A stretch of DNA of 64,000 nt, taken from contig OX597820.1 in assembly GCA_951406725.2 (NCBI GenBank), forward strand, positions 83,700,001-83,764,000. The letters are read 5' to 3'. Each line of letters begins with the position of its first letter. Within the stretch, counting starts at the first letter, position 1. This DNA comes from Octopus vulgaris. Its lineage: Eukaryota. Positions 11,901 through 30,070 of the stretch are shown in pieces. A program made the translations under genes and the position numbers. Under the pieces are notes generated by a model, which was not told the origin of the DNA, did not search any database, and saw nothing but the letters and a program-made list of their open reading frames with translations.

Positions 11901-14082
11901 CAAATAAATACAAATATATATTTTTGTATACAAAACACAAATAATATGAACAGCAGTTTGCAACGTTTCATCAAAAACAATTATAATTGTCGCGAAATGT
12001 GACTAGGGTGAAAACATTTTTATGCCAGTACATCTCCGTTTCTCATTCGATTATATCAAAAGATTTGATTTTGATGTAATTTTTACGCCATTTACGAAAT
12101 TTATAACTAGCTTTTGAAGAAATGAATAACACAAACACCTCGAGCTTCCAGTTATAGAAAGATTAACCCATTTTGCATATCCCTTTCAGCAACCATGTTA
12201 AAAGATGTCGGTTTTATGGTCAAGGTTTCTGTCGAGGATTAGACTTAGATATAGAGTTGAGAGTTAGGGTTTAGGATCAGTGTAACGATGTATGATTTAT
12301 AGTTTAGGTTGAAAGTCAAAGTTAAGTTTTAACGTTAGGTTCCTATTGAAGAAATACGTTTTTGGTTAGTATTAAAACTAAAGTTTAAGCTTAGACTGAA
12401 TTTTATGAGCAGGGTTTTGAATGTTTAAAGATACGTTTTATCAATAGGTTTATTGTTAGAGTTTATATTTTATTGTTGGAGCTTTTTGTTGGAGTTTATA
12501 ATATTATATATTATTATATGTTATAAGTCCATCAAAAAATGAACTTCAAATGAAGATTTGTTCGTTTCAATTTCTGTCGTTAAATATTATTCATCTTTAA
12601 ATAACATTTTTAGTTTCCATTCCTACCAGAGAATATGTTAGGCTGAAATGTCATATAGAAAACAAGTCTGAAACGACATATACAACATAAGACTTAAACG
12701 CTTTCTTCTTAATTTCTCCAATTTTAGGATTGATACAAATAGTGCCCATCTATAAAAAAAACTTATCAATAAAATTGCAAAATGCATTTCAAACAGATAA
12801 GATTCTGAGTTTCTTAATAATAACCTTTACGGCTGAATTAGGTTGGAATAGTACTGTTTTAATCTGTTCAAATAATCGTTAGCATAATTCCTACCGACAT
12901 ATTCCGAGGAAATTACTTGCCGTTTCGTTATTTAAATCCTTTATGATCTAGCTGACTTCTGTATTTGTAATCTTATATTCCAGTCTCATTTTTGTTTCCT
13001 TGGGTTACATTAACTTTTGGCAACATGAAAGACTATGATATAATTTTTCTAAATTTTCTTTATTTGAGTTTATTTCTTCTATCATGAATCACTGGAATAA
13101 AGTAGATACATAGCAATATTGTAATCATTGCATATATTATTGTATTCATTCTAGTGATTATTGATATCTGAATCTGTTTACAGTATGCCAACCCTAGCCA
13201 TATTGGATTTTCATGATACTGTTGATATTAATAACATTTTGCATCTTTCGTTTTGAAGATATTAATAGGTTCATGTGAAGACATTATGTGAATTTATATT
13301 ATTTATGTATTTAAAGTCTAAATTATTTATATATTTAGAATTTTTCATCTTTCAAATTTTGTATTATCAAATATTGCTTTATGATGGTAGGTTGGTAGAT
13401 AGAATGTCAAACAAAATTCATTGCAGCACATACTTAGGGTTCTTCGTATCTACAGCTGAAATCCAATTGAGCTCGATTTAATCTTATTGTCTTCCCATTA
13501 TAACTACAAAGTATCGATATAATCGAGTGTTCCATCCACCAAAGTATTTCCGGCCATGACCCCATATAATAATCAATATTCAATATTTAACACATGTATT
13601 TTTATTTAAAATCTAACATCCTCTCCGCAATCAGGTTTTCGCTTCTATTGGCTAGTATTCCGTAAGGAAGTTAAATTTGATCAGTATTGTTATTTGAAAT
13701 TGTATACAATCTTTTTTGTTATAATTCCTTCATGCTCCTTGCTATTAACAACAATAACTTCTTAATTTACATATCTGCTGCTATTATTTTTGTTTACTGT
13801 GTATAAGTTTATTCTTTTATGTTTAAGGTTCATAATGGAACTTTCCCAGATTCGTTGGTCTGATGGAATGCAAAGTTACATATATTTCTATTCTATAGAC
13901 ATTAGACTTTTCATTTCGAGAGGCCTCCATTTTGTTACTCTGAGGCTGCACATGAACACAAATACATATACATTCACGTTTAAACCTACGCCCCTGTACT
14001 TATGAACGCACACACACATACACACACACACACACATACACACACCTATACCTACAGGCATACGCACACATACAGATATATC

Positions 14083-14610
14083 CGATTCCTCCACATCGCA
14101 CATCTTCCAAAACCTACCCGTTCTATCCTTCGAACGAATCTTTAACTTGCGTGACTACCTGGTCCAAAATTTCTTCCCTAACCCCACCTCCGGTCTTAGA
14201 TCCTTCCACTGCTCCCACCCACAGTGCTGCACCTGCCCCTACCTTTCGAACACCACCATCCACACACGCATCTATCATCGTCTATATGTCACCACCGACT
14301 CTTTTCCTTGCAGTTCTAGTAACGCCATTTACTGCATCATCTGCTCTGACCGTCCTTCCCTGTACATCGGTCAAACGGGACGCCGTTCGGCTGACCGGCT
14401 CGCGGAGTACTTCCGAGACATCAGACACTGAAATAACAACCCAGTCTCGTGCCATTTCCACTCTCCCTGACATTCATTATAACATCTGTCTGTGTTCGGA
14501 CTCTTTAACCGGAGCCATTCGGACACCCGCCTTTGATGTGAACAGGAATTAATCTTCTCTATTCACTCCTTTGCCCCACATGGCTCACTTCACCTCTTCT
14601 ATTCATCTGA
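14083..14610 (+). mobile_element. Penelope-like element 3' fragment (Neptune-like Cys linker + GIY-YIG)
   Basis: PVLSFERIFNLRDYLV...CSHPQCCTCPYL...FPCSSSNAIYCIICSDRPSLYIGQTGRRSADRLAEY...NPVSCHF. In-frame stops follow position 14431. Confidence 0.9.
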
Positions 14611-17906: not shown

Positions 17907-18207
17907 TTTCTTTACTACCCACAAGGGGCTAAACACAGAGGGTACAAACAGGGAAAGACAAACGGATTAAGTCGATTATATCGACCCCAGTGCGTAACTG
18001 GTACTTATTTAATCGACCTCGAAATGATGAAAGGCAAAGTCGACCTCGGCGCAATTAGAACTCAGAACGTAGCGGCAAACGAAATACTGCTACGTTCTGA
18101 GTTCAAATTCCGCCGAGGTCGACTTTGCCTTTCATACTTTCGAGGTCGATTAAATAAGTACCAGTTACGCACTGGTGTCGATATAATCGACTTAATCCGT
18201 TTGTCTT
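17907..18207. mobile_element. Two CORE-type (OR-like) SINE copies in head-to-head inverted arrangement
   Basis: gttctgagttcaaattccgccgaggtcgactttgcctttcat...aagtaccagtt...ctgg occurs on both strands and forms a near-perfect inverted repeat. Confidence 0.9.
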
Positions 18208-19686
18208 ATACCTGCTTTCCTTTCCTAAAGGTAAGCATATGTTTTTAAAAGAATTATAAACCACGCGAGCACATTATGGTAGATTTTCAATTTTATATTT
18301 GCAAACATCTGCAAACATATTTAGAACGGATCCGTGAACAAGCGGAGCCCATTGTGCTATATATGTGTGATTTGTGACAGTGGCTTAGCAGGGTACTTCT
18401 CAATTGATTTAGCAGTGTAGTAAATAATTTCACGTAGGTATATGCCTGGAAACTGTTGATGTTTCTGTTCATAGATACTTACAGAGTAAGAAGAGAGAGA
18501 GAGAGAGGTGGGGGACTGAGAAAGAGAGGGAAATTACTAAGAGGTTACAGGTGGTGAATATCCTCCTTGAGGGGAGAGAACCGCTTCAAGGCTTACTGAA
18601 TATTTTTTTTACTTACTGATTGTTGATTAAACTTGTTTTTTTAATTATTTTAGTTTGTATTTGAGAGTTTATGAAGTGGTTTTTATCAGTCATAGTTGTA
18701 TATCTTACAAGTAGGCATAGATTTTAAAGCACCGAACAAAATCCTTTTAATTTCAAATCACTTCGTTGTTGATTTTGCTGTTCATCTTACCGTGTTCAAT
18801 TAATATATAATACTATTGAAGTACTGATGTTTATGTAAGACATGAATCCTATGCACGTAAAACGCTTATGGACTTGCCAACAATTTTAGTGTTTGTGTTC
18901 TGCTTCTCATTAGAATGTTTTTATTTGAGATCTTTAGGTTTGTTAATAACGACCATACCAGTGTAAGAAACGTTGGTAGGATTTTATTTTCAGTTTTTAT
19001 ATTAAAATTTTATTTCAGTACCAAGAAATTGCTTCCATTGAAAAATCTATTATATCTTTTTTTTCAGTCACTGCTTCTGCCAACACTGCATGGCTATGTT
19101 TTTGAGTACAAATGTAATATCCTATCTTTGATTAAGATTTCTGAATATATTTATTAGTCATTCATATCCTCGTCTACTTATTTTTTAGAAAATATTGTAG
19201 GTGTATATTCACTATAAAGTTCAACTACAAGAATTATTTTTACTGTCTACATCATGCTGTCTTCTTGTTATATATATTTTGTATGCAGTTGAGAATTACA
19301 TGATATTTGGTGAGCACAGGTCATTTGACATCGGTCTTTCAATAGCATATTTGAATTTCCATTCCACACTTCAATTAGAGTTGGAGAAAATGCACAGACT
19401 AACTAAAAATAAACAACTGCTATGACAGCCATGTGAAACACTAATTCCTCTCTTCTGAAATGCTTAATCCTCATACCTTATACGTCGTGTGTAAGATGCG
19501 GTTCTTTATATTTTAAATGTGACATTCTTCTAGTGCTGTCATATTACAGATGGCATAACGACTGTATGAGTTTAAGATGAAACACACTAAATTAATTTTT
19601 TCCACAAAATGTTATTTCCCCCCACAAAATGTCATTTTCCCACTAAAGTTTGGCTTTGTCTTACGTGAGAATACATCTTATAGACC

Positions 19687-22987: not shown

Positions 22988-23034
<47 letters not shown>

Positions 23035-23187
23035 CATAAGCTTATAAATATATATATATATATATATATACATTCAGCAAAAACAATTAAGATTCAAGTG
23101 AATTCCAATGAATTCAAATGAATATGGTACTTAACTTAGATGCACCAGAATTGTTTATGGTATTAACCATAAAAAATGTGGGGTGAT

Positions 23188-23722
23188 TATAACCAAGAAA
23201 AAAGCAACAAGAATGGATTAGTAGTTTAGTACAATTCTTTCATACCAAGAACAATTTTATTTAAAGCTGTAAGTATTGCAGCAAATACAAATGTCCAGTA
23301 TGCATAAGCTGAATCACATATATGTTTTCCAGACATGCTAGAGAATGTGTCTATCCACATGAAGTATTAAGAGTGAGTTCTATGAAATTTAAAGTCAAAT
23401 TATAAGCAGACTCAAATTGCTTTCTAATGATGCACAGTTTTATAAAAAAGTTTTTTAAAAGATTTTATAAAACTGTGCATCATTAGAAAGCAATTTGAGT
23501 CTGCTTATAATTTGACTTTAAATTTCATAGAACTCACTCCTAATACTTCATGAGGATAGACACACTCTCAAGGATGTCTGGAAAGCATATATTTGATTTA
23601 GCTGATGAATACTGGACATTTGTATTTGCTGCAATACATGCAGCTCTAAATAAAATTGTTCTTGGTATGAAACAATTGTACTAAACTACTAATCCATTCT
23701 TGTTGCTTTTTTCTTGGTTATA
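23188..23722. repeat. Long palindrome, ~260-bp arms, 15-nt spacer (likely inverted Penelope pLTR pieces)
   Basis: Arms 23188-23447 and 23463-23722 are reverse complements. I counted 14 substitutions and no indels by eye. Confidence 0.97.
23597..23685 (+). ncRNA. Type I hammerhead ribozyme motif with palindromic minimal stem III
   Basis: tttag-CTGATGA-atactgg...ttggtat-GAAAC-aatt-GTA-ctaaa. All conserved core positions are present, with stem I tttag/ctaaa, stem II atactgg/ttggtat (with G-U pairs) and a self-complementary stem III ACAATTGT. Confidence 0.8.
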
Positions 23723-23799
23723 TATATATACATATACATAAACTTATAAATATATATGTATAAGTATTTATATATATATATATATATATATACATATAT

Positions 23800-24087
23800 G
23801 TTTGTTCCCTGAGCCATGCCAGGCTCATAAGGGCCGGTTTCTTGGCGTATAGGTTCCCCACCTGGACGGGACGCCGGTTCGTCGCAGGTGAGCTGCAAGA
23901 TGCAGGAGGATAGAGTGAGTGAAAGTTGTGGCGAAAGAGTCAACAGAAGTTCGCCATTACCTTCTGTCGGAGCCGTGTGAAGCTTAGGTGTTTCGCTCAT
24001 AAATACACACATCGCCAGGTCTGAGATTCAAACCCGCGATCCCTCGACCGCGAGTCCGCTGCTCTAACCACTAGGCCATGTGCCCTC
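23800..24087 (-). mobile_element. tRNA-derived SINE, apparently full length
   Basis: The minus-strand head gagggcacaTGGCCTAGTGGttagagcagcggactcgcggtcgagggatcgcgGGTTTGAATCtc has Pol III A and B boxes and a tRNA-like layout, followed by a ~200-bp body. Confidence 0.85.
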
Positions 24088-28100: not shown

Positions 28101-30070
28101 ACCGACAGACATCGCTTCGAGTCTGCCAGCAAGCATGAACTGCTCGTGCTGGGAAATTTCATGGCCGAAACTAAAGTTCCAATGACTGGTAAACGAAGCA
28201 CATTTCCTTATACTGCCTCCAAGATCCATGAACATAATTTGCTGGGACAAAACACTATCAAGACACTAAGAATTTCATTAGACAATGCTTTTGGACTGAA
28301 ATGCATAAACAGTCAAGACAAGTGTAAGGGTCCAAAAAGAAAATTACATCCTAAATCTTCTAACGGCCTTATATTTCTCTGCAACGACATTGCCAGAATC
28401 TCTGTGACAAATTTCCAGATCTTTTCACAGAAGAATTGGGATGGCTTAAAGATTTCAGACTGGAAGTAAAATTCAAGTCTGATGCGAAGTCGGTTCTTCA
28501 CAAGGCACAACGTGTTCCATTTGCTCTTCGTGCTGACCTGGCCAAAGGTTACCAAGAAGCTATCGAAAAAGGAGTCTGGTAGCAAGTCTAGCTCAACGAA
28601 TACGCAACGCCAGTGGTACCGATTCGCAAAGCACATAATCTGGACACTCTGAAGCCCAAAATACGGATTAGTGGTGATTACTCAGTTGGCATCAACAATC
28701 AACTAGAAGACAACCGTCATCCAATTCCGCTGCCAGAGGAACTGACGCAGAAGCTGGTAGGTGGATGTCGTCATACGAAGATTGGCCTTGCTGATGCCTA
28801 CAACCAGATCAAGCTGGTACCAGAGAGTCAACGAAGGCATTCATAGTGGAGTACTTCGGCAACAACAACTTCCAATCAGCGCCTGGTTATTTCCAAGAGA
28901 TCATGGAAAACCTGACTAGTGATCTGCCTGGAGTTGCCGTTTTCCAAAACGATATGTTCGTCAAAGGGAAAGGCGCAAATGGCCACTTAAGCAACCTGAG
29001 GCGTTTGCCCTCACGTCTGAAAAACAAAGGGCTCAAATGTCGCTGTGAAAAGTGCTTGTTCGCTCAAACCAATGTGGAATATCTTGGCCCATCTTATCAG
29101 CCGAAGGAATCGCGAAGGAATCCAAGGTCGAGGCAGTCATGAAGATGTTACCCCCTATAGACATCTAAAGCTTAAAGTATTTCTTGAGGTCGATTCGGTT
29201 CTACGGGAAGTTTATCCCATACCTGACCACTATGGCCTAGCCACTCCTTGGAAGCGGGTAGATGAAGAGCAAAGACCGTTTAAACAGTTGAAAAGCTTAT
29301 TATCTCTAGATCAAGTCTTTCTACATTTCAACGCAGACAAACCTCTCGGACTGGCTTTCATCATTGGAATTTGAGCTGCCTTGTTTCATCGCTATCCGGA
29401 TGGAAGTGAGCGCCCAATTGTCAGTGTGTCCAAGAGTCTCACGTCTGCAGAAAGAAACTACAGCCAATCCACAAGAAAGACATATCCATTATCTTTGGCT
29501 TGCTAAAATTCTACCAGTATCTGTACAGACGTAAGTTCATAGTGGTGACTGATCATAACCCTCTGACACCACTTCTCGCATCCAACCGACTAGCCCGATG
29601 AGCTTTGTGGCTGAACCAGTTTCACTACACAATTTATTACCGTAAAATAGCGGATTATGGCATTGCCGACGCTTTCAGATACTTCCCATTTGGAAATGGC
29701 AACAAATTCGACAAGGAAGAAAGTGGTGAAGACACCCATATGGTGTGCACCACTAGAGTTCTCAGTCTTCAAGTCAAACATTTAGATGGAAACATCTTCC
29801 CACAAGAATCTGGGAAAGACCCAGTGATAAATTACAGTGATGAACTATATCTCCGAACAGTGGCTACCGAAGCACACCGAGACCAATGATGAAATAGAAA
29901 TGTTCCTGAAGGTGTTAGATCCACTCAATATCAACCACGGATTCTTCATCTATGTGTCAAGATTCGTGACCCATATATCCTTGAGTCCAATATCCTTGAT
30001 ACTGGACACATATCGGACATTTCGACACGTATGAAGGAATTAATAAGAACCGCTGTTTATTGGTCCGGTA
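28100..30070 (+). mobile_element. Gypsy/Ty3 LTR retrotransposon pol fragment (protease end, RT, RNase H, start of integrase), frameshifted
   Basis: NLLG; RVPFALR; EYATPVVPIRK...IRISGDYSVGINNQLE..RHPIPLPEEL; LADAYNQI; SAPGYFQEIMENL...VAVFQND (decayed YxDD); DGSERPI...[13 protein letters not shown]; KFIVVTDHNPL; MKELIRTAVYW. Domain order RT-RH-IN indicates Gypsy. Confidence 0.92.

Follow-up and report, generated by a model that had tools for sequence, protein, structure and literature searches.

We find that the palindrome at 23188-23722 of the window, by which we mean the whole 64-kb stretch of octopus DNA analysed here, is very probably a single short insertion of a Penelope-like element, in which two 5'-truncated pLTRs, one with a long and one with a short end, stand head to head and decay neutrally, likely without any regulatory role. 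On the one hand, one arm carries a hammerhead ribozyme motif with an intact core and the other a broken one, and the break is most likely ordinary decay and not part of a switch. On the other hand, the inverted pairs of this family nearly always join one long and one short end, a rule that probably stems from two separate starts of copying at every insertion.

The palindrome and its source element

The inverted repeat is real, as the original prediction had it: two arms of 260 nt each with 14 mismatches, separated by a 15-nt spacer (Table 1). The boundaries given there hold for the arms but not for the outer limit, given that the left arm runs on for ~115 bp of family tail down to ~23075. No ORF is left at the locus, and the arm divergence of 5.5% places this pair among the more diverged of the family. 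The 39-bp flanking repeats differ by one mismatch, a score reached by 1 of 47 pairs and by 1% of shuffled flank pairs; in other family pairs abutting repeats of 12-16 bp are seen in about 5 of 47, the remainder being masked by (TA)n. The tail at 23075-23187 folds into two stem-loops, and contig depth over its middle is far above that over the arms, this part being perhaps common to more subfamilies. Contigs of three sequencing runs presumed to be RNA and of one further run cover family-like pieces; among those listed none spans the stretch, and strand, ends and editing are not readable from them, for which reason they carry no weight as evidence here.

Table 1. Features of the palindrome and its flanks (positions in the window)
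Feature	Position	Strand	Remark
Left copy of 39-bp direct repeat, candidate target-site duplication	23017..23055 (approximate)	+	~21 nt of TA repeat before the element
Long tail of left arm, ~115 nt	23075..23187	-	Equals the 5' leader before the ORF in near-full-length copies
Left arm: inverted 5'-truncated pLTR copy, long 3' end	23188..23447	-	9 private substitutions
Damaged hammerhead	23225..23313	-	Private changes at G5, A9, C15.2 and in stem I (one position)
Spacer: family sequence extending the left arm	23448..23462	-	Junction falls in a near-palindromic, AT-rich family stretch
Right arm: 5'-truncated pLTR copy, short 3' end, into (TA)n	23463..23722	+	5 private substitutions
Type I minimal hammerhead motif, intact core, palindromic stem/loop III	23597..23685	+	Predicted cut after 23680
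Right copy of 39-bp flanking direct repeat	23719..23757	+	Abuts the element

A search of the genome (2.8 Gb) with the arm yielded 1256 candidates, of which the best 40 were scored, as were the best 40 of 1911 in a second candidate set. A 30-nt end motif has 162 exact genomic matches and its reversed control none; end-motif sites were drawn from the 100 of these 162 matches that were listed. The sampled copies are the best-matching ones and hence biased towards young insertions. L182 and L184-L189 were excluded from the site list, L018, a duplicate of L015, from the arm statistics, and L015 from the count of 23 pairs discussed below. At 65.417-65.455 Mb of C13 (L183-L187) lies a 7.8-kb unit in five tandem copies, 98-99% identical, each with the same tiny long-plus-short insertion; considered as a tandem source element, this array proved to be a segmental duplication that holds a tiny insertion.

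Upstream of the arm, longer copies contain an ORF that encodes RT motifs, an Asn-rich linker, a four-Cys linker and a GIY-YIG-type endonuclease (VIY..YIG). The Asn-rich insert between RT and endonuclease is long, as are the N-rich inserts of Adineta vaga Penelopes. Frames of 976-984 aa are open in several copies of an older-branching related subfamily, among them L222 (296-3250), whose 984-aa frame has YRDD and VIY..YIG motifs. Pfam gives one weak RVT_1 match below cut-off (E=0.0023) and otherwise recognises neither ORF pieces nor full ORFs; the family endonuclease aligns pairwise (E=9e-13) to an ORF of the window that has a Pfam GIY-YIG match, and the best of 366 homologues bears PF01541. In L193, L195-197, L204, L206, L209 and other copies, arm and tail stand before the ORF start and are found again at the 3' end; therefore the arm is the pLTR of an endonuclease-bearing (EN+) Penelope-like element. 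The pLTR origin, the inverted arrangement and the minimal dimer-type hammerhead motif of the original prediction are all borne out. By linker and (TA)n bias the clade looks Neptune/Nematis-like, although the Cys spacing, CxC-x5-C-x5-C, does not literally match the linker given for Neptune/Nematis in the published descriptions consulted, CX2-5CxxC.

No further family copy is found in the window or within 10 kb on either side. Another Penelope-like remnant lies at 2096-2982, with an Asn-rich linker, a Cys linker and a GIY-YIG endonuclease (Pfam E=7e-5) that is 30% identical to the endonuclease of the palindrome family; a GIY-YIG fragment at 14006-14431 and an RT fragment at 28795-29142 are both below the Pfam cut-off. 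A second, unrelated palindrome of 272 bp (90% identity) lies at 17946-18217. On the minus strand at 23800-24085 a tRNA-type SINE-like repeat points toward our palindrome, with A and B boxes at ~24078 and 24034, and the first T4 run that it meets on that strand is at 23655.

Could the palindrome, functionless by design, nevertheless act through its RNA? A read-through transcript would form a ~260-bp hairpin, predicted to be very stable (-383 kcal/mol), that might feed siRNA production or ADAR and, as a by-product, help to silence the family in trans. About half of the sampled sites are inverted pairs, and in transgenic flies siRNAs matched inverted Penelope regions, hairpin RNA and siRNA from such copies being described there as host silencing (PMC3681739). 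Any such effect would, however, belong to dozens of loci and not to 23188-23722 alone. The genomic arms show no excess of A>G changes (26 A>G, 41 C>T, 38 T>C, 35 G>A), though copies need not record editing, and the T4 run would likely halt RNA polymerase III coming from the neighbouring SINE long before the left arm. An Rfam search for a miRNA precursor gives no family at gathering score, only sub-threshold matches driven by the hairpin. Silencing as a by-product is thus conceivable but rather doubtful.

Long and short ends of inverted pairs

Among 145 sampled sites we find 66 head-to-head pair rows within 700 bp, derived from 63 sites and thus partly dependent on each other; pairs further apart were classed as 'other'. 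In 65 of the 66 rows one end is long-tailed and its partner short-tailed, and in the sole exception the partner stops before either end. Likewise, in the subset found by the end motif only, a partner is present at 51 of 95 sites, and long joins short in 51 of 52 rows. Of 51 copies that look unpaired, six do have a tiny inverted end, in every case of the other type. The rule also holds out of sample: in nine near-full-length elements the 5' inverted partner was typed before the 3' end, and eight of the nine proved opposite as predicted, while the ninth ends at neither site. Both 3' ends are internal at pLTR-ORF junctions, so that both are internal sites of a tandem precursor, and TA repeats follow 84 of 102 short ends and 74 of 85 long ends.

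The 5' ends of the arms are less orderly. In the 65 pairs the short arm reaches further in 33, the long arm in 17, and both reach equally far in 15. At L152, L168, L177 and L181 the inverted piece consists of tail sequence only and has nothing in common with its partner, hence neither arm was copied from the other there. Overlaps of 2-8 nt are the commonest among callable junctions, and 15 of 55 have gaps of at least 5 nt or failed calls. Both arms of a pair mostly belong to a single variant: they are discordant at 32 of 1252 family-variable sites and at 132 of 4616 sites elsewhere, and a rare allele is common to both arms in 13 of 44 pairs. Different common family alleles on the two arms occur in L157, at 3 of 6 variable sites, in L142, at 5 of 60, and in L047. 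The differing alleles of these three loci suggest two RNA templates per integration.

Taken together, the long/short rule and the partners without overlap favour priming on two strands, at two internal sites of the RNA, over fold-back copying. The element protein would nick both strands of a (TA)n target; one target 3' end would prime reverse transcription ~40 nt downstream of the ribozyme cut, and the other would prime at a site ~116 nt further on, both sites being TA-rich and internal to a tandem precursor RNA. Both cDNAs would stop early and then join via a few bases of microhomology, and the joined copy would decay. This scheme is read from DNA footprints, with junction calls that are clean in only part of the pairs. 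That in every complete insertion one target strand uses the distal start and the opposite strand the proximal one, each by TA/UA annealing and usually with one RNA, sometimes with two, is the reading toward which the balance tips slightly.

Fold-back self-priming has been proposed for inverted copies (PMC3846280). The same element, decaying just as neutrally, would then owe its palindrome to self-priming of the cDNA or of an antisense RNA, and its two ends to endonuclease trimming at two TA-rich sites. That the arms usually are the same variant, down to the rare alleles of 13 of the 44 pairs, would follow naturally, several junctions lie inside local palindromes or have overlaps of 2-8 nt, and the tail is attributed to endonuclease resolution in PMC8557442. 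Yet fold-back cannot yield the four partners without common sequence, nor does it fit the 33 of 65 pairs in which each arm has sequence absent from the other, or the differing common alleles of L157 and L142 that point to two templates. Fold-back may account for some loci; as the origin of the family's palindromes it is unlikely.

The hammerhead motif and its decay

A motif scan of both strands of the window finds one hammerhead only, with its core from 23602 and with stem I formed by 23597-23601 and 23681-23685, so the complete type I hammerhead originally predicted in the right arm stands as a motif. Searched with the Rfam models to which the original prediction had pointed, it gives no hammerhead match at gathering score and none at E<=10; the ribozyme therefore remains putative, the call resting on the motif, its conservation at family level and the support for its stems. 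The three core and stem III changes predicted for the left copy are found at G5 (mirror of 23604), A9 (23608) and C15.2 (23673), together with a fourth, at the mirror of 23599, which had been overlooked and which breaks stem I. The palindrome holds one sense copy per strand, so that self-cleavage would need a partner in trans.

Across the family, no column out of 17 in the core and helix III has an alternative allele in at least 5 arms, compared with 19 of 82 other columns (p=0.037). The core is conserved only between subfamilies, that is, in source elements. In stems I-III 90% of cells are paired, one pair shows two-sided change (U-A/G-C/G-U/A-U) and stem I has wobble changes, a support that the shuffle control overstates, as the sequences are related. 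The single variant of loop III retains self-complementarity through G-U. At the 10.1-11.1 pair, A-U is found in 17 of 29 and G-U in 8 of 29, instead of the conserved G10.1-C11.1. Core conservation and stem pairing would fit selection on a dimer-type hammerhead in source elements, and it is there that the ribozyme would matter, if at all, two sense copies of a tandem pairing via the palindromic stem III. Arm 5' ends do not pile up at the predicted ribozyme cut: 7 of 83 fall in that 10-nt bin of a flat profile, in which some of the refined ends are poor.

Once inserted, the core decays like its surroundings. In 131 arms, 22 of 1439 core positions carry private changes as against 155 of 10524 elsewhere (core plus stem III vs the rest, Fisher p=0.83), which favours the neutral decaying relic that the original prediction had kept as the simpler alternative, and the ribozyme is undamaged in 110 of the 131. 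All 14 arm differences at our locus are private to it, 9 on the left and 5 on the right.

The original prediction proposed a built-in antisense switch, in which the left arm would sequester the active ribozyme and would have had its own inactivated on purpose. Some local features lean that way. Three of the 9 left-arm changes fall within 13 of 260 sites (p=0.007), the inner 77 bp of the palindrome are without mismatch (p=0.006), and arms with at least 3 core hits number 2 of 131 against 0.37 expected (p=0.054). Of the 23 pairs in which both motifs are present, the long arm is the damaged one in 6 and the short arm in 1 (p=0.125). Core hits number 17 over 58 long arms against 9 over 72 short ones (p=0.15 once load is allowed for). 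This weak, non-significant lean of damage to long arms is biased, because likeness over the ribozyme was in part the criterion by which short arms had been chosen. The family as a whole tells against a switch. Its core mutates at the background rate, one of the three outcomes that had been named as refuting the idea, and does so in paired (8/627) and unpaired arms (14/812) alike; both ribozymes are intact in 16 of the 23 pairs; and across the family the 107 mismatches of 23 informative pairs are not depleted near the centre (KS p=0.20). Nor does antisense pairing require damage to the left ribozyme. The pair at 23188-23722 is among the more diverged, with 5 private changes in the right arm itself, and for RNA that lacks the left arm the hammerhead fold is still predicted to lie 4.4 kcal/mol above a competing hairpin. 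A transcript of that kind would hold only one dimer-type ribozyme, while single minimal PLE hammerheads were inactive in vitro (PMC4209133) and the anole PLE hammerhead needed protein (PMC11167929). With all this, a selected switch is highly improbable. The perfect inner 77 bp have no counterpart across the family and may be due to chance or to a single local conversion; homogenisation between arms around the centre, considered for the family, left no family-wide sign (same KS test). One damaged ribozyme in a palindrome is thus no evidence of design, and only the family-wide rate of private mutation can decide.

That the 535-bp unit itself moves, as a MITE- or retrozyme-like non-autonomous palindrome, is hardly credible: the genome does hold many palindromes of this sequence, but arm lengths and junctions vary by site from a dozen bases to >1 kb, there are no tandem hammerhead units, and repeated junctions are seen only in larger duplications (the C13 array; L015/L018).

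Relation to known elements

In L1 twin priming both target strands prime and an inverted piece is joined by microhomology, as we propose for the octopus family. L1 thereby joins non-overlapping pieces of one RNA, starting at its poly(A) end, whereas the octopus pieces usually overlap and both of their starts are fixed and internal.

The literature already describes inverted pLTRs, tails on one end, and pairs of hammerheads on opposite strands at distances of 100-700 bp. The EN+ insertions described in PMC8557442 and, for Adineta vaga Pen2a, in PMC3846280 share head-to-head pLTRs, a tail on one arm, a pLTR hammerhead and (TA)n targets with the octopus family, and Pen2a also the Asn-rich insert between RT and endonuclease. 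The tail is given there as 30-40, compared with ~116 nt in octopus, and as optional or often present, where the octopus family has it on exactly one arm in all rows but one. Metazoan type I hammerheads of PLEs (Cervera and de la Pena 2014, PMC4209133) have the same short stem I, long helix II and tiny palindromic helix III, and dual motifs on opposite strands, ~100-700 bp apart, were already noted in them. They differ in the conserved G-C at 10.1-11.1, and the putative octopus helix II is extended to ~60 nt. A non-LTR retrozyme (10.64898/2026.07.22.740005) is described with tandem direct hammerhead units, unlike the inverted octopus locus with one sense motif per strand. The octopus repeat annotation of PMC13282606 mentions Penelope-like families, and no hammerhead in the portion of its text available to us.

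A parallel to the proposed mechanism comes from Poseidon of Anolis carolinensis, studied in vitro (Frangieh et al. 2024, PMC11167929). There too two internal starts define the tail, and both target strands are cut and extended, which in octopus is read from DNA. The anole element used uncleaved RNA, was predicted to dimerise and did not need cleavage by its hammerhead, which is protein-assisted. The differences concern the sites: the anole hammerhead overlaps the ORF start, whereas the octopus sites lie upstream of the ATG; the anole starts lie in AC-rich sequence without homology to the target, whereas those of octopus are TA-rich and would anneal through TA; and, in the accessible text of that study, the anole start sites are not tied each to one arm of an inverted insertion. 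Within the literature searched, which left supplements and older subscription papers including Arkhipova 2006 outside its scope, no paper states a strict long/short rule or a link between tail and inversion.

These family data bear on how Penelope-like elements build their inverted ends. If two-site integration is obligatory, the 'optional tail' and the 'inverted pLTR' of Penelope-like elements would both result from that single step, without any need for fold-back self-priming. The long/short rule, the non-overlapping partners and the two TA-rich starts yield predictions for the existing in vitro PLE assay.
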